Shown here piece after piece: positions 2,042 to 9,931 of a DNA stretch of 11,456 nt (position 1 is its first letter; each line of letters begins with the position of its first letter). Below the pieces are notes generated by a model. That model worked only from the letters and a program-made list of their open reading frames with translations. It had not been told where the DNA came from and made no database searches. Origin of the DNA: Candidatus Iainarchaeum sp. (GTDB lineage Archaea; Iainarchaeota; Iainarchaeia; Iainarchaeales; 0-14-0-20-30-16). The stretch lies in assembly GCA_903916665.1 (NCBI GenBank), contig CAIWXP010000074.1, forward strand, positions 1 through 11,456, in the 5' to 3' direction. The position numbers and the translations under genes are program-made.

Positions 2042-2812
2042 ATGGACTCAAGATTAGGTGTTTTCCCAATAATTATATTGGCAGTATTGTTTTTAATTTT
2101 AGGTATGCTTGTAGCACCGAAATATATATTTGACTCTGGAAGTAATAATAAACAATTATTTGTTGTTGGAAAAGCTGACCAAAAAGTAGTACCAGATAAT
2201 GTTGTAGTTAACATAAACATAACTAATGATGCTTTAACAGCAAGTGCTGCTTTAGAGGCAAATCAAAAACAATTTGATGTTATTAAAGCCTATGTTGATG
2301 GTTTAAAAGATTATAATGGAATTAAATTAGAAACTGCTAGTTTTAGTGTTAATCCTAAATATGATTGGGATGCAAATTTACAAAAGTCAATACAAAATGG
2401 TTATACTGCAGATCATAGTTTAAGATTTAGTGTTGATGATTTTAATTCAAAGGGAAAATTATTGGTTGATTCAGTAACAGAATTTGTTAAAAATAAATCA
2501 GTAAGTATATCAAATTTAACTTTTGATGTATCTGATAGTTTAAAAGATAAAATAAAAAAATTATTAATTACTGATGCTATGAAAGATTCTTGGTCAAAAG
2601 CAAAAGCAATTGGTGATGCTGGTTTTTTTGTTTTAGATCCTAAACCAACAAAAATAAATTTAAATTATACTGATTATACTCCCTATCCTATGTATTATGA
2701 AAAATATAGTGCAATGGCACAGGATAGTGTTGCAGGTGCTGCAAATAATTCAATAGCTCCAGAAGAAGTTAATTTGAGTGTTACAATAGATACGACCTAT
2801 ACCTATAATTAG
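2042..2812 (+). CDS. SIMPL / DUF541 domain protein (BP26/26-kDa periplasmic immunogenic protein family), N-terminally membrane-anchored
   Basis: It has an N-terminal TM helix (VFPIIILAVLFLILGMLVAP) followed by the SIMPL layout. That layout is 'VVGKADQKVVPDNVVVNINI' (G-x-v-x-v-x-PD), an 'INPKYDW...NGYTADHSLRFSV' core and a second half 'ISNLTFDVSD...AMKDSWSKAKAIGDAG'. The SD AGGTGG lies 4 nt upstream. Confidence 0.8.
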   Translation: MDSRLGVFPIIILAVLFLILGMLVAPKYIFDSGSNNKQLFVVGKADQKVVPDNVVVNINITNDALTASAALEANQKQFDVIKAYVDGLKDYNGIKLETASFSVNPKYDWDANLQKSIQNGYTADHSLRFSVDDFNSKGKLLVDSVTEFVKNKSVSISNLTFDVSDSLKDKIKKLLITDAMKDSWSKAKAIGDAGFFVLDPKPTKINLNYTDYTPYPMYYEKYSAMAQDSVAGAANNSIAPEEVNLSVTIDTTYTYN

Positions 2813-2852
2813 GTAGGGGTTCTTTAAATTTTTAATATGCGAGATGATATTT

Positions 2853-3959
2853 ATGGCAAAGAATAATAATGGAAAATGGTTTGCAATTTTAGTAATCGTT
2901 TTATTTTTATCTTCTACTTTTTCTGTGTTTTTATATACTAGTGGAAACAAAGAAGATACAAATACCACAACAACAACAGTTACTGATCCCACAACAACGA
3001 TTCCAATTTCATATACTGCAACATTGGATGGTAATATATTAGAAGTTCCTACTGCAAGTTCATTTAGATTAATGGCCTACACAAATGAAACAGATGTTGA
3101 TAAATTAGATTTATCACTAAGAGATGTTAATGGCGTTTACAATGTGGCTGGAAGTATAACTTTAAATAAAGATACAAATAAAATAACTGCAAATTATATT
3201 TACATTGCAGATATTGTAGGAACTAGTTTAGATTATAATTTTTTATATGGTAAAATAAATGATAATAATAGTTTTATTAAGGGACAAACTAATTTATTTC
3301 CTTACGCAAAAGTTAGTTATAATTCTTTAGTTGATTTCACTAATAAAGATTTAAATTCAAAAAAGCAATATGATTTAGGTGGAAATGAAATAGTTGTTTT
3401 GGTTGAACCAGATACTTTTGTAAATGATAAAATAAGTTTTTCTATTGCTGCACAATTTAAAGGAGATGCATTAGCTAATTATGGCGCTTTTGAATTACAA
3501 AATTTAAGTGCACAACCACAGGCAATAAATTCAATTTATAGTTCAAAATTCACAAATAGTTTCTATGCTATTTCATTTGATGGAAATATAGCAAAAGATA
3601 AATTTAAAGTTTTAAATGATAAAAATTTAGATTATAACTATGAATTTAGTTATAGTACAACCTATCTAACAATAGATAAAGATGCAAATTTAAGTAAATA
3701 TTTAACTTTATTAAATGGTTTTAGTAAAGATTATAATGCAAAAGAGAATTCATTTGTCTATGGTACAATTTTTGTTGATACTATAAGTTATATGGATAAA
3801 AATTATGATGCAAATAGATTGGTTAATACTTTTTTAGATTATAACAAATATATTGATTTAAATTCAAATTTAGAATATAATTTAACAGCATATTTAGTAA
3901 GAGACAAAATAGTAAGTGTTTCTGCAAACCCTATATTTGATGTAAATAAGGTTAATTGA
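2853..3959 (+). CDS. membrane-anchored Thr-linker / Asn-rich extracellular protein (hypothetical surface protein)
   Basis: ORF 2844..3959. It has an N-terminal TM helix (WFAILVIVLFLSSTFSVFLY) and a Thr-rich linker (TNTTTTTVTDPTTT), then ~310 aa that are Asn/Tyr/Asp-rich with several N-X-S/T sequons (NTT, NET, NNS, NLS x2, NLT). ATG 2853 is preceded by GAGATGAT plus 4 nt (SD-like). ATG 2844 is the alternative start. Confidence 0.65.
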   Translation: MAKNNNGKWFAILVIVLFLSSTFSVFLYTSGNKEDTNTTTTTVTDPTTTIPISYTATLDGNILEVPTASSFRLMAYTNETDVDKLDLSLRDVNGVYNVAGSITLNKDTNKITANYIYIADIVGTSLDYNFLYGKINDNNSFIKGQTNLFPYAKVSYNSLVDFTNKDLNSKKQYDLGGNEIVVLVEPDTFVNDKISFSIAAQFKGDALANYGAFELQNLSAQPQAINSIYSSKFTNSFYAISFDGNIAKDKFKVLNDKNLDYNYEFSYSTTYLTIDKDANLSKYLTLLNGFSKDYNAKENSFVYGTIFVDTISYMDKNYDANRLVNTFLDYNKYIDLNSNLEYNLTAYLVRDKIVSVSANPIFDVNKVN

Positions 3960-5012: not shown

Positions 5013-5444
5013 TTATTCCAAATAAATACTTTCAATTGCTTTATTAAATATTAAAATTAGAATATACATTTCATCTTCAGTTAATGATATTCCTATGCTG
5101 TTAAGAGTATTATCTTTTTCTTGTTGATTTATTTTAAATGAATAACCAAAATTACTTTTTGATATTTTTAATACTGCATTCTTAACTGTTGTTTCATTAA
5201 TAGATTTATTTGGATCATGGAATAATTGTAATTCTTCTTTTGGACCCTTAATAAATACACAAATCTTTGCAGCATCCTGTGCACTTAATTTAAAGATTTG
5301 TTTATTGCTCCAATCAAATGCTTTTTCTTCTTTTTGCTTCGCAAATTCTAGAAATATGCTCTTCTTTAATTTATTAAAATCGACGCTCATTGCAGAGCCA
5401 GATTTTGAAGAATTAGGTTTGTAAATAACATAATTATTTTGCAC
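5013..5444 (-). CDS. Whirly-like single-stranded DNA-binding protein (bare Whirly domain, 143 aa)
   Basis: Several motifs line up colinearly with plant Whirly proteins recalled from memory (potato p24/StWhy1, AtWHY). The pairs, ours vs plant, are IYK..GSAMSV vs IYKGKAALTV, FDWSNKQIFKLS vs YDWSRKQVFSLS, and LFHDPNKS vs FFHDPNKG. Two more are GYSFKI vs GHFFNL and ISLTEDEMYILILIFNKA vs IPVTKAEFAVLVSAFNFV. The GTG start (5444) is preceded by GGTGAT (5453..5448) plus AAT. Confidence that this is a real CDS is higher (~0.85) than confidence in the family call. Confidence 0.6.
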   Translation of the reverse strand: MQNNYVIYKPNSSKSGSAMSVDFNKLKKSIFLEFAKQKEEKAFDWSNKQIFKLSAQDAAKICVFIKGPKEELQLFHDPNKSINETTVKNAVLKISKSNFGYSFKINQQEKDNTLNSIGISLTEDEMYILILIFNKAIESIYLE

Positions 5445-6640: not shown

Positions 6641-6675
6641 GTTAAAAAGATATATATAATGATAGGGGTGGTAAT

Positions 6676-7728
6676 ATGATTGCTTGTCGAAGAATAACTG
6701 AATATCAAGTAGTAGATGCAAATGAAACACTTTCTAAGGTAATTCCTAAGCTAAAGAAGGATAAGCAAGTAGTTGTTTTTGACGGTGCCAAATATAGTGG
6801 TATTGTTACTAGAAAAAACATATTAAAGGAAGGGATAAATTTACCTGAAGAAAAGATTTCAAATATTGTTTTGAGACCACCAGCTGTTTATGATGAAACT
6901 TCTGAGTTAGATGTTGCAAAATATTTTATTGAAACGGGTGCACATTTTTTGCCAGTTTTAAACGATGAAGATAAAAATAAAATTGAATGTGCAATTTATA
7001 GAATTGATTTTATAAAAGATATTGTATTGCCAAGTATGAAAGGTACAAAGGTATCTGAGGTAACAACAGTAAATGTTAAAACGATTTATCCAACTGATAA
7101 TTTGACAAAAGCTTTGGATATTTTTCATGAATTTGGCATATCAAAATTAGTTGTTTATGATCAAGGAAAAATATATGGTGTTTTAACAATGTCAAATATT
7201 TTGGGGCAGTTTATGCATGATACTCAAATATCAAGTTCAAAATTACAGACAATTTTAGTTAAAGATATTATGAAAAACGAAGCCTATACCATTGAAAAAT
7301 CAGAAGACCTATACAAAGCAATTAATTTATTTTCTGAAAAGAATATATCTTCAGTTGTTGTTTTGGATAATGGGTTTCTGTATGGAATAGTTACAAAAAC
7401 AGATATTTTAGAACACTATGTTTATGCTTTGGAAAAAGAATTAAAGCAAAGTACTGTGCAAATATCAGCTAAATTTCCTGGAATAGATAGACAAGAAGTT
7501 GAAAATATATTTTCTCATTTAGATAGATTTGGAAAAGAGTATAAGGTATTTGTTTACTATAAAATGGGTAAAGAAAAGTTTAGAGGGCTGCCTTTAATAA
7601 ATTGTAGAGTTAGGTTAATTGAACCTAGACATACCTTTGGAGTATCCGTTGAAAGTTGGGGTGTTGAACACGCAACTGAGTTAGCAGTTAAGAAATTAAA
7701 AAGACAAATGGGTGATGTTAGCTTCTAG
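6676..7728 (+). CDS. four-CBS-domain (two Bateman modules) protein with a C-terminal HPF/RaiA-like (ribosomal S30AE-like) domain
   Basis: Four CBS repeats end in GIVTRKNILK, CAIYRIDFIK, YGVLTMSNILGQF and YGIVTKTDILEHY. Residues ~261-350 (7456..7725) read as beta-alpha-beta-beta-beta-alpha. They end in 'HATELAVKKLKRQM', which resembles the HPF/YfiA C-terminal helix '..AAIDGLIDKLARQL'. The CBS call is high confidence and the HPF-like call is moderate. Confidence 0.8.
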   Translation: MIACRRITEYQVVDANETLSKVIPKLKKDKQVVVFDGAKYSGIVTRKNILKEGINLPEEKISNIVLRPPAVYDETSELDVAKYFIETGAHFLPVLNDEDKNKIECAIYRIDFIKDIVLPSMKGTKVSEVTTVNVKTIYPTDNLTKALDIFHEFGISKLVVYDQGKIYGVLTMSNILGQFMHDTQISSSKLQTILVKDIMKNEAYTIEKSEDLYKAINLFSEKNISSVVVLDNGFLYGIVTKTDILEHYVYALEKELKQSTVQISAKFPGIDRQEVENIFSHLDRFGKEYKVFVYYKMGKEKFRGLPLINCRVRLIEPRHTFGVSVESWGVEHATELAVKKLKRQMGDVSF

Positions 7729-7746
7729 GCTTTTTAGAAAAGCCTA
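7726..7746 (+). terminator. perfect 9-bp stem / 3-nt loop hairpin beginning at the CBS-gene stop codon
   Basis: TAGGCTTTT (7726-7734), TAG loop, AAAAGCCTA (7738-7746). It is relatively GC-containing for this sequence. The TAG stop (7726-7728) forms the base of the stem. T-rich tracts follow at 7770-7778. Confidence 0.4.
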
Positions 7747-7873: not shown

Positions 7874-8389
7874 TTATCTTAGTCTCATTAGGATATCTCT
7901 TTGGTTATCAAGAATATCTTTCATAAGTTTTGTTAGACCATCAATTTTAGCTTCTATTGAATCGGTTTTGTTTTGCAAATCGCTGTGTCTTTCATTTAAA
8001 TTAGTGTGTAATTCTTTTATTTCTTCAATATGATCTCTTGTAGGTAAACTAGAAATACTATCTTCTAGGGTATCTAAGCGATTTTCAAAAGCATTAACTC
8101 TTTCTAGATGTTGGTCAACTTTATTTCCTGCTGCTTGAGCAACGTTCATTGCTAAGTTGCTAGCTAATTTAGCTTCGTTGGCATGATCTCTCACTGTATT
8201 TACAATTTCAGGCTTTATTTCTTCTTGTTCTTTTATTGGAGAGGATTCTTCTGAAGCACCTTCGCTCATTGCTTCATTTATTGTGGCTTCGTCAAAACCA
8301 ATATCAACAAGCATACTTTTTATTTCATCATTACCTAAGCCAGATTGTCTTAAATTAGCAATAGTTTCCATAACTGCTTTATCAGCCAT
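7874..8389 (-). CDS. hypothetical coiled-coil protein with a small N-terminal helical motif and an acidic linker
   Basis: The N-terminus carries a tandem short motif (GLGNDEIKSML / GFDEATINEAM) and an acidic linker (SEGASEESSPIKEQEEIKPE). The C-terminal ~100 aa has a heptad-like pattern (LERVNAFENRLDTLEDSI...IEAKIDGLTKLMKDILDNQRDILMRL). The SD GTGAT (8397..8393) plus ATT precedes the ATG. Confidence 0.65.
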   Translation of the reverse strand: MADKAVMETIANLRQSGLGNDEIKSMLVDIGFDEATINEAMSEGASEESSPIKEQEEIKPEIVNTVRDHANEAKLASNLAMNVAQAAGNKVDQHLERVNAFENRLDTLEDSISSLPTRDHIEEIKELHTNLNERHSDLQNKTDSIEAKIDGLTKLMKDILDNQRDILMRLR

Positions 8390-8462: not shown

Positions 8463-8485
8463 CTTTTCTTTAGCAAATGATTTTT

Positions 8486-9931
8486 ATGATAGTTGATTAT
8501 CCAAATGGTCCATGGAAAAAGTTATTCTCTGGTAACTATGATGAATATTCACTAAGTCTTTTTTTTAATGAAGAAGGATATATAATTACAGAAATATTAA
8601 ATAATGAAAAAACAAAAGCGGTTTTAACGATTTCACAAATAATTGGTGTTTTTGGCGATGCAGAAACATTTGTTGAAACTATCCCAAGAAATGCAATATT
8701 TTTACTAGAACATGGTACAAAATCAAATCAAAAATATATTTTACTTCAAGGAGATCAAGAGGTATTAAACTATGGTCAGAAAGATATCACTGATTTTGTA
8801 AATGACCAATTTAAAAAATTAAAGAAAGACTCAAAAAGCATTGTTAATATTGCAAGTTCCTACGAAATTAATTTAAAAGATTATTTAGAATTGCCAAATG
8901 ATATGAAAACAAATATATTTTCTAATCCCTTATCTTTATTTTCGTTTATTACTCAAAATAGAGGTCCAAAGTCATATACTTCTAATAAAATAGAACAGGA
9001 TAAGAAAGAATTCTTTTTAGGTTTTTATAAAACAACAAATGAAAAAGTAACAGAACCTTTAGAATTGTTTAATAAAACATTTGTTTTTGGCTCTGGTGAT
9101 AATTGTGTTAAAGTTTTATTAGAAAATTTTTCGCAAAATAAAACAAATATTGTTGTTTTTACCTATTCTGATAATATTTCAAATATGAAATACCCAAATG
9201 AAAGTTCAAAAGTTCAAGAAGAGAATAAAAGTGCATCAATGGGATTTCCCACAATAGATTATAAATTAGGAGAAAAAATTTGTGTTAATTTGCAAGATCT
9301 TCCTGAAGGATCATTCCAAGAATTAATTCAATTAAAAGATGTAGAAATTTCTGCAATAATTACAGATGTTTTAATTAATAAAAAAAGTACGACTTTAGAT
9401 AATTTAATAAAAGATATATCAGAATATCTTAGTGATAAATTTACTAATTATAATTTAAATTTAGCAACTCGTTTGATAAACATAGTAAAGCAAGAAACGC
9501 CAGGAATATTTTTGGGAGACTTTTCAGTTAGTGAGTTTTTTAAGAATTATGGAAATTTAGGAAATATAAATATTGTTTATATTGATAAAAATAATTTATT
9601 AGCATCTAGAACAATAATTTATAATACCTTAAAGAAAATAGTAGAATTTTCTGGAAAAGAACAAAAATTATTGGTAGTATTACCAAATTTACAGGATGTT
9701 TTGCCAAGAAAAAATGATGATATACTTTCAAAAGAGTTTTTGAAATTATTACAACAGGATAATTATAATTTTTATATTTTTACATCACAAAATGAAATAG
9801 ATTTGAAACCAGAATTGTTAAATCAATTTACTGCTAAATTATCTATTTTAGAAATAGAAGAAATAGGAATAACATTAAAAGATGCAAAACCATTTAGATT
9901 TATTTTAAGACCAACTTATTCGAAGGCGTAA
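8486..9931 (+). CDS. HerA/FtsK-superfamily (DUF87-like) ATPase homologue with degenerate catalytic motifs (predicted inactive)
   Basis: ORF 8477..9931. ATG 8486 is preferred on TATA geometry. The architecture follows HerA-like proteins. 'FFLGFYK...VTEPLELFNKTFVFGSGDNCVKVLLE' occupies the position of RH..I.G.TGSGKS. 'INIVYIDKNN...LLVVLPNLQDVLP' occupies the position of I.DLS...hhhh(D/E)EAH.h.P. 'YIFTSQNEIDLKPELLNQFTAKLSIL' occupies the position of L.lisQRPsel...vlsQcnt.i.lRL. The reference patterns are recalled from memory. Confidence 0.5.
   Translation: MIVDYPNGPWKKLFSGNYDEYSLSLFFNEEGYIITEILNNEKTKAVLTISQIIGVFGDAETFVETIPRNAIFLLEHGTKSNQKYILLQGDQEVLNYGQKDITDFVNDQFKKLKKDSKSIVNIASSYEINLKDYLELPNDMKTNIFSNPLSLFSFITQNRGPKSYTSNKIEQDKKEFFLGFYKTTNEKVTEPLELFNKTFVFGSGDNCVKVLLENFSQNKTNIVVFTYSDNISNMKYPNESSKVQEENKSASMGFPTIDYKLGEKICVNLQDLPEGSFQELIQLKDVEISAIITDVLINKKSTTLDNLIKDISEYLSDKFTNYNLNLATRLINIVKQETPGIFLGDFSVSEFFKNYGNLGNINIVYIDKNNLLASRTIIYNTLKKIVEFSGKEQKLLVVLPNLQDVLPRKNDDILSKEFLKLLQQDNYNFYIFTSQNEIDLKPELLNQFTAKLSILEIEEIGITLKDAKPFRFILRPTYSKA

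Follow-up and report, generated by a model that had tools for sequence, protein, structure and literature searches.

We analysed the gene at positions 6676-7728 of an 11,456-nucleotide stretch of archaeal DNA (contig CAIWXP010000074.1 of the Candidatus Iainarchaeum sp. assembly GCA_903916665.1; hereafter the window, meaning this whole stretch). The gene encodes a protein in which four CBS domains are followed by a domain resembling the bacterial ribosome-hibernation factors HPF and RaiA, and it very probably specifies a trimmed member of the archaeal hibernation-factor family known as HibA or AHA. The window has a G+C content of 24-30% and carries the archaeal markers NAC, EndA and the alpha subunit of ADP-forming acetyl-CoA synthetase; neither a tRNA gene nor an Rfam family was found in it. 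The called ATG of the gene is supported by a Shine-Dalgarno-like element, GGGGTGGT, together with the start of most homologues, which coincides with it. A perfect inverted repeat, AGGCTTTT / AAAAGCCT, overlaps the stop codon and may form a transcript-end hairpin. Coordinates of all features are collected in Table 1.

Table 1. Positions of the features identified in the window.
Feature	Position	Strand	Basis or remarks
HibA/AHA-family gene	6676-7728	+	Open reading frame list; 350 amino acids and TAG stop
Putative Shine-Dalgarno-like element GGGGTGGT	6665-6672	+	Sequence inspection; 3 nt 5' of the ATG
CBS1, ~residues 9-58	6700-6849	+	Pfam CBS, AlphaFold2 secondary structure, column counts
CBS2, ~residues 62-120	6859-7035	+	Pfam CBS, AlphaFold2 secondary structure
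CBS3, ~residues 125-178, with T171-x-x-N174	7048-7209	+	Pfam CBS, AlphaFold2 secondary structure, column counts
Shortened CBS3-CBS4 loop, F179-L194	7210-7257	+	Alignment to HibA and long HibA homologues, column counts
CBS4, ~residues 195-250, with ribose-binding motif G237-x-x-T240-x-x-D243	7258-7425	+	Pfam CBS, column counts
HPF/RaiA-like domain	7456-7725	+	AlphaFold2, Foldseek, sub-threshold PF02482 match, PDB profile search, hhalign, isoelectric point
G298-K-E-K-F-R-G304, archaeal-specific strand 2-3 insertion	7567-7587	+	HibA alignment, clade columns, hhalign
8-bp perfect inverted repeat AGGCTTTT / AAAAGCCT	7727-7745	+	Sequence inspection; overlaps the TAG stop of the HibA gene
SIMPL/DUF541 open reading frame	2042-2812	+	PF04402, E 9e-28
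Thr/Asn-rich open reading frame	2844-3959	+	371 amino acids; N-terminal hydrophobic segment, no family match
Whirly-family single-stranded-DNA-binding open reading frame	5013-5444	-	143 amino acids; PF08536, E 1e-13
Predicted coiled-coil open reading frame	7874-8389	-	171 amino acids; convergent with the HibA gene
orf484	8477-9931	+	484 amino acids; no Pfam, NCBIfam or meaningful PDB sequence match

Four CBS domains and an HPF/RaiA-like C-terminal domain

The four CBS motifs named in the initial annotation were recovered by Pfam (four stretches, E 1.2e-33; best stretch 195-248) and are visible as four units in a full-length AlphaFold2 model built on a 21-sequence alignment (predicted local distance difference test score, pLDDT, 87.6; predicted template modelling score 0.86). 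A Foldseek search of the PDB with this model retrieved CBS tetrads, namely SriA from the M. acetivorans ribosome, SSO3205, MJ1225, AMPK-gamma and Dri, and the best match was SriA (9znf_4, E 3e-19). HibA was absent from these matches in a structure library holding entries released by 2026-04-08, presumably because that date precedes the HibA paper of 27 April 2026. The N-terminal residues 1-255 are acidic (isoelectric point 5.71), whereas residues 256-350 are basic (isoelectric point 9.67).

The segment 7456-7728 comprises codons 261-350 and the TAG stop; the peptide that had been quoted for it is exact, and the protein runs on for three further residues (VSF). Its predicted elements are a strand (261-265), a helix (272-285), three strands (290-302, 305-316 and 319-328) and a closing helix (330-349). 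Folded alone, the domain gave an identical topology with a pLDDT of 87.4. All of the 26 best Foldseek matches of this isolated model in the PDB were bacterial or plastid HPF/RaiA/pY proteins, with template modelling (TM) scores of 0.6-0.79. Among them were Listeria HPF (8uu7_w, TM 0.79, root-mean-square deviation (rmsd) 1.8 Å), T. thermophilus protein Y (2ywq_C, TM 0.79, rmsd 1.5 Å) and E. coli HPF (2rql, TM 0.78, rmsd 1.7 Å). The proposal that the C-terminus is HPF/RaiA-like was thereby borne out at the level of predicted fold, which superposes on HPF/RaiA structures.

Sequence comparisons pointed the same way. A profile of the C-terminal domain matched PDB sequences of HibA (E 1.7e-6), of a second archaeal structure described below (9l96_a, 1.4e-4) and of E. 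coli HPF (0.03-0.05, whole-domain alignment), and hhalign aligned it to E. coli HPF with an E value of 8.7e-5 and a probability of 60%. The closing-helix alignment put forward in the initial annotation, VEHATELAVKKLKRQM against MYAAIDGLIDKLARQL of E. coli HPF, was reproduced residue for residue by both hmmsearch and hhalign. A comparison with the Pfam profile PF02482 (Ribosomal_S30AE), which the same annotation had proposed, yielded a match over the whole domain (residues 272-345 on profile positions 15-80 of 88), but its score of 18.9 bits (E 0.0025) lies below the gathering threshold of 23.7 bits. The domain is therefore best described as a remote homologue and not as a Pfam-callable member of PF02482. 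Among full-length relatives, 13 of 21 match PF02482 at E<=0.01 (best 1.5e-5), and one compact relative, P0027, reaches 25.2 bits, above the curated cut-off.

When just the C-terminal 99 residues served as query, a word-indexed search gave no matches; homologues were recovered with the full-length query (23 full-length relatives) and by exhaustive profile search. The latter, run with the C-domain profile against 1.84 billion representatives, returned 53 proteins at E<=0.001. Two size classes predominate: proteins of ~350-400 residues that carry the domain close to their C-terminus, and standalone proteins of ~100-140 residues; a few are of intermediate length, and every long match that was scanned contains CBS domains. 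These length classes agree with the published distribution of HibA/AHA. NCBIfam (June 2026) holds no model for the CBS-HPF architecture, and the window protein gave sub-threshold matches to CBS families only. The Pfam threshold and NCBIfam thus both overlook the HPF domain, and homologues carry public names such as 'CBS domain protein', 'dehydrogenase' and 'transcriptional regulator', which gives the assignment some value for annotation.

Kinship with HibA and AHA

In a phmmer search of PDB sequences, residues 9-345 of the window protein aligned to residues 13-368 of 9sr9_H with an E value of 3.6e-28, a resemblance far beyond chance. PDB 9SR9 is the P. abyssi HibA-ATP complex according to the data statement of the HibA paper (PMC13324472). 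HibA was found by cryo-electron microscopy of stressed cells (Madru et al., Nat Commun 2026, PMC13324472) and is described from Pyrococcus abyssi (PAB0961) and Thermococcus barophilus, with structures 9SR9-9SRF and 9T7H (PMC13324472). AHA represents the same family in Haloferax volcanii, where it was seen with two bound AMP molecules (Souza et al., PMC12934967). The AHA family is defined by a module of four CBS domains and a C-terminal HPF domain, and 3,160 homologues in 17 phyla were counted (PMC12934967). Ribosome binding and translation inhibition were demonstrated for the P. abyssi and T. barophilus HibA and for H. volcanii AHA, and the CBS-HPF fusion was reported to be widespread in Archaea (PMC13324472, PMC12934967).

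The fusion is therefore already known, having been published in 2025-2026 as HibA/AHA. The initial annotation had mentioned, with reserve, a role of CBS-domain proteins in archaeal ribosome hibernation, and the literature bears this out: besides HibA (PMC13324472) and AHA (PMC12934967), Dri, SriA-D and ARC are such proteins. Proteins that join a bacterial-type hibernation domain and an AMPK-gamma-like energy sensor form a genuine and important class, but at the family level the window protein adds nothing new.

A second solved relative, 9l96_a, was matched by phmmer with an E value of 5e-22. It is a 406-residue 'CBS domain-containing protein' (entries 9l96, 9l98, 9l9c and 9l9v) with an acidic, haloarchaeal-looking sequence, and the alignment spans the CBS region and the HPF domain. 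We found no publication citing PDB 9L96; the entry appears to be a further HibA/AHA structure deposited without a findable paper.

We transferred the ribosome contacts of HibA (Supplementary Data 1 of PMC13324472) to the window protein through the phmmer alignment. HibA has 53 contact residues in its C-terminal domain, 40 of which could be aligned; 10 are identical and another 10 similar in the window protein. Residues E300-K301-F302-R303 are identical to HibA E323-K324-F325-R326, which touch 16S G496 and A1461 (E. coli G530 and A1492) and uS12 (PMC13324472). R313 corresponds to HibA R336 (contacts to h31 and uS9), R343 to R366 (h44) and Y294 to Y317 (h31). The E-K-F-R motif and these three residues are invariant or nearly so in the column counts of a clade of compact relatives, comprising the window protein, P0001-P0023 and P0027, for which conservation was counted over 21 members. 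E. coli HPF has a six-residue gap opposite the insertion 298-304 in the hhalign alignment. From this pattern, G298-G304 is predicted to form a wedge in the decoding centre.

HibA and the window protein align end to end and share, in addition to these contact residues, the T-x-x-D motif of CBS4. HibA is longer (392 versus 350 residues), its β13-α11 insertion exceeds that of the window protein by three residues, and it carries Asp at the CBS3 ribose position, where the window protein has Asn. HibA comes from a hyperthermophile, whereas the window protein comes from a mesophilic DPANN metagenome-assembled genome (MAG) of 26% GC. AHA likewise has the four-CBS module with a C-terminal HPF domain, and its AMPK-gamma-like tetrad is matched by the full-length model of the window protein. 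In AHA an extended 'loop 3' enters the peptidyl-transferase centre (PTC) and two AMP molecules occupy the CBS3/CBS4 pair (PMC12934967); in the window protein the loop is truncated and this pair holds one canonical T-x-x-D site. With bacterial HPF/RaiA (YfiA, pY) the window protein shares the fold, the strand order and the closing helix K-L-x-R-Q, and the archaeal homologues occupy the identical decoding-region site on the 30S subunit. The bacterial proteins, however, stand alone or carry the long-HPF dimerisation domain instead of a CBS tetrad, and they lack the six-residue insertion (GKEKFRG) between strands 2 and 3. Dri (Thermoproteota), SriA-D (Methanosarcina) and ARC-A/P (Methanolobus) possess an AMPK-gamma-like ribosome-binding CBS tetrad similar in fold to that of the window protein, but they have no HPF domain and block the mRNA channel with other elements; among them, ATP-triggered release was reported for ARC only (ARC preprint).

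HibA binds one nucleotide per CBS module, at the CBS3/CBS4 interface, with dissociation constants of 12 µM for AMP, 65 µM for ADP and 113 µM for ATP (PMC13324472). T240-x-x-D243 of CBS4 adjoins the site where HibA and AHA bind AMP or ATP, and N174 takes the ribose-binding Asp position in CBS3. Within the clade, G237 and T240 are invariant and D243 is present in 18 of 21 members. In CBS1, the ribose-binding Asp position is occupied by Asn48 (column counts). Nucleotide control of ribosome binding, or the direct coupling of energy charge to silencing put forward in the initial annotation, is a plausible hypothesis for the window protein, as it still is for the HibA and AHA model proteins.

A compact clade and its possible mode of action

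The compact proteins were aligned with longer HibA/AHA homologues from the exhaustive profile search, and three reductions were apparent. The loop F179-L194 between CBS3 and CBS4, the counterpart of the HibA 'PTC loop' and AHA 'loop 3', has a fixed length of 16 residues in 21/21 clade members, compared with 24 in P. abyssi HibA. In the HPF domain, the α1-β2 region (helix 1 to strand 2) has 6-8 residues fewer than in the longer homologues, and the window protein is 5-8 residues shorter there than P. abyssi HibA. Finally, a C-terminal tail of 20-28 residues (~24 in P. abyssi HibA) is missing from the compact group; 7 residues follow R343 in the window protein, whereas 26 follow the equivalent R366 in HibA. 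One homologue, P0057, combines a long loop with a short tail, which implies that loop loss and tail loss can happen separately. The only named source of the compact clade so far is a Diapherotrites/Iainarchaeota MAG.

Homology to the solved P. abyssi and H. volcanii complexes suggests a working model. On the small subunit, the basic HPF/RaiA-like domain would occupy the mRNA/tRNA channel, where its conserved E-K-F-R insertion would touch uS12 and the equivalents of the decoding bases G530 and A1492 of E. coli, and A- and P-site tRNA and mRNA would be blocked. The four-CBS disc would span the tRNA sites to the large subunit, thereby holding the 70S ribosome together, and would have one or more adenine-nucleotide pockets where CBS3 meets CBS4. 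The small-subunit wedge would operate as it does in HibA and AHA. Because the compact proteins are without the greater part of the PTC-inserted loop of these factors, and without the C-terminal tail that leads toward the mRNA exit channel, silencing would probably be achieved mainly by the decoding-centre wedge and steric bulk.

The four-CBS-plus-HPF architecture, the predicted fold, the end-to-end homology to HibA and the conserved contact motif argue that the gene encodes a HibA/AHA-family hibernation factor acting in a HibA-like manner, in a form trimmed in this DPANN lineage; we assign this reading a probability of roughly 87%. Ribosome binding, translation inhibition and AMP binding, which were shown for its relatives, would be expected of the window protein, and nucleotides may regulate its binding. 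Several observations weigh against the assignment. The PF02482 match is sub-threshold, and the source organism of the window protein is uncultured. HibA K192, Q194 and Y195 fall in the alignment gap, and the P-R-x-R...GEK elements are gone; Y195 of HibA contacts the universally conserved A2834 (PMC13324472). With a loop eight residues shorter and devoid of Y195, K192, Q194 and GEK, insertion into the PTC as in HibA and AHA is doubtful. In the PTC state, 7/28 N-terminal-domain contacts of HibA are identical in the window protein. The missing tail accounts for 13/53 C-domain contacts (369-386), and in HibA these touch h23, h24, h28, uS7, uS11, eS28 and the E-site tRNA (PMC13324472). CBS1 and CBS3 both have Asn at the Asp position of nucleotide-binding CBS domains, a substitution that was tied to an empty pocket in ARC-A (ARC preprint), and ribosome binding by P. 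abyssi HibA was not clearly altered by AMP or ATP (PMC13324472). The short loop and missing tail nevertheless mark a variant and are no ground for exclusion, because the family is defined by its architecture of four CBS domains and an HPF domain.

The same reductions lend themselves to a different mechanism, in which the protein would work in the manner of a short bacterial HPF with a sensor attached. The HPF domain alone would make specific contacts, all with the small subunit, while the CBS disc would be regulatory or merely steric, leaving the PTC unplugged and the mRNA exit channel open. This alternative is a serious contender, although we consider it somewhat less probable than an even chance. 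It would account for the fixed short loop without the PTC-stacking Tyr and GEK, for the loss of the contact-bearing tail and for the complete retention of the decoding-centre motif. Set against it, the window protein has the identical residue at 6/14 of the HibA N-domain contacts (residues 47-186) that do not belong to the PTC loop (K60, P68, K82, E86, K100 and F179), and some large-subunit docking may therefore persist; moreover, the HibA CBS module also takes two positions, at uL5 and the L1 stalk, that are independent of the loop (PMC13324472).

Returning to the HibA/AHA assignment, the residual interest of the locus is modest and lies in the compact clade without PTC loop and exit-channel tail. 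Tentatively, the ~350-residue proteins may be a distinct minimal HibA/AHA subtype in which both are lost and the decoding-centre wedge and a single nucleotide pocket retained, but at present we regard this as rather unlikely. The passages of the HibA and AHA papers that were consulted mention no loop-less or tail-less subtype, although their figures may include one, and their surveys cover Iainarchaeota genomes and may already contain the compact form (PMC13324472, PMC12934967). The compact form points to parts of HibA that are dispensable in a reduced genome, and it offers a natural variant for probing nucleotide binding against ribosome affinity. In a true minimal subtype, silencing on the small subunit and the sensing of nucleotides would be separated from protection of the PTC, and such a subtype would directly test the proposal of the AHA authors that AMP stabilises loop 3 (PMC12934967).

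Two further readings were judged highly improbable. The first, a CBS-domain transcriptional regulator resembling HhpR, is suggested by the JGI names of P0002, P0005 and P0013 ('predicted transcriptional regulator'), by the existence of the regulator family CM-3/HhpR among CBS tetrads and by a weak NCBIfam HhpR match. That match scores 33.9 bits against a cut-off of 520, Pfam and NCBIfam scans found no DNA-binding domain, and the closest solved relative is ribosome-bound; we rejected this reading on the HhpR score and on the C-domain topology, the domain being HPF-like in both fold and sequence. The second, a generic double-stranded-RNA-binding or ACT/ferredoxin-like ligand module with no hibernation role, draws on lower-ranking Foldseek matches of the isolated domain to double-stranded-RNA-binding domains (Loquacious, Dicer partners; E ~2e-3, TM ~0.5), whose fold is structurally near that of HPF, but it is countered by the higher-scoring HPF/RaiA/pY matches, by the conserved HibA-specific contact motif and by the topology of the AlphaFold2 models, which has the extra N-terminal strand of HPF and differs from the β-α-β-β-α-β order of ACT/ferredoxin-like domains.

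Related loci and neighbouring genes

Three relatives of the window protein, with 47-59% identity, were located among GTDB representative genomes. One is from 'Candidatus Diapherotrites archaeon CG08_land_8_20_14_0_20_30_16'; judging from the name, this MAG would belong with the Iainarchaeota order 0-14-0-20-30-16, an order that appears in the source data of the HibA paper (PMC13324472). The genes for NAC, Whirly, HIT, EndA, HibA, the coiled-coil protein, orf484 and ACD are collinear in four related loci, L001-L004.

The initial annotation had listed translation- or RNA-related neighbours. NAC, a GNAT protein (Acetyltransf_3) and the tRNA-intron endonuclease EndA were all found with Pfam, but the label 'RimL-like' for the GNAT protein reflects no more than a sub-threshold resemblance (47 bits against a cut-off of 184). 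As a hint to function these neighbours are uninformative; L001-L004 are close relatives in which the whole window is syntenic, and gene neighbourhood was rejected as functional evidence.

In L004 (MAG GCA_053535955.1), the HibA orthologue at 2635-3690 is called as two open reading frames of 98 and 229 amino acids. P0018 (229 amino acids) had been a candidate two-CBS variant and was rejected because a 98-residue open reading frame lies immediately upstream, as in a split or frameshifted gene. The arrangement in L004 points to a frameshifted gene, a pseudogene or an error of assembly and not to a true two-CBS variant.

Other open reading frames of the window are also conserved in the related loci. 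The coiled-coil protein has weak, sub-threshold coiled-coil matches and 45-61% identity to its counterparts. The protein encoded by orf484 shows 48-62% identity and is syntenic in L001-L004, its gene lying always just 5' of that for the acetyl-CoA synthetase alpha subunit. The SIMPL/DUF541 and Thr/Asn-rich open reading frames are both conserved in L001 and L003. The Whirly gene is the most conserved in the window, at 82-86% identity in L001-L003 compared with 47-59% for HibA, and its product matches plant WHY1 (4koo_A, 3.3e-11) and PBF-2 p24 (1l3a, 9e-11) in phmmer searches. Since Whirly proteins are known chiefly from plant organelles, a strongly conserved DPANN homologue may merit separate study.

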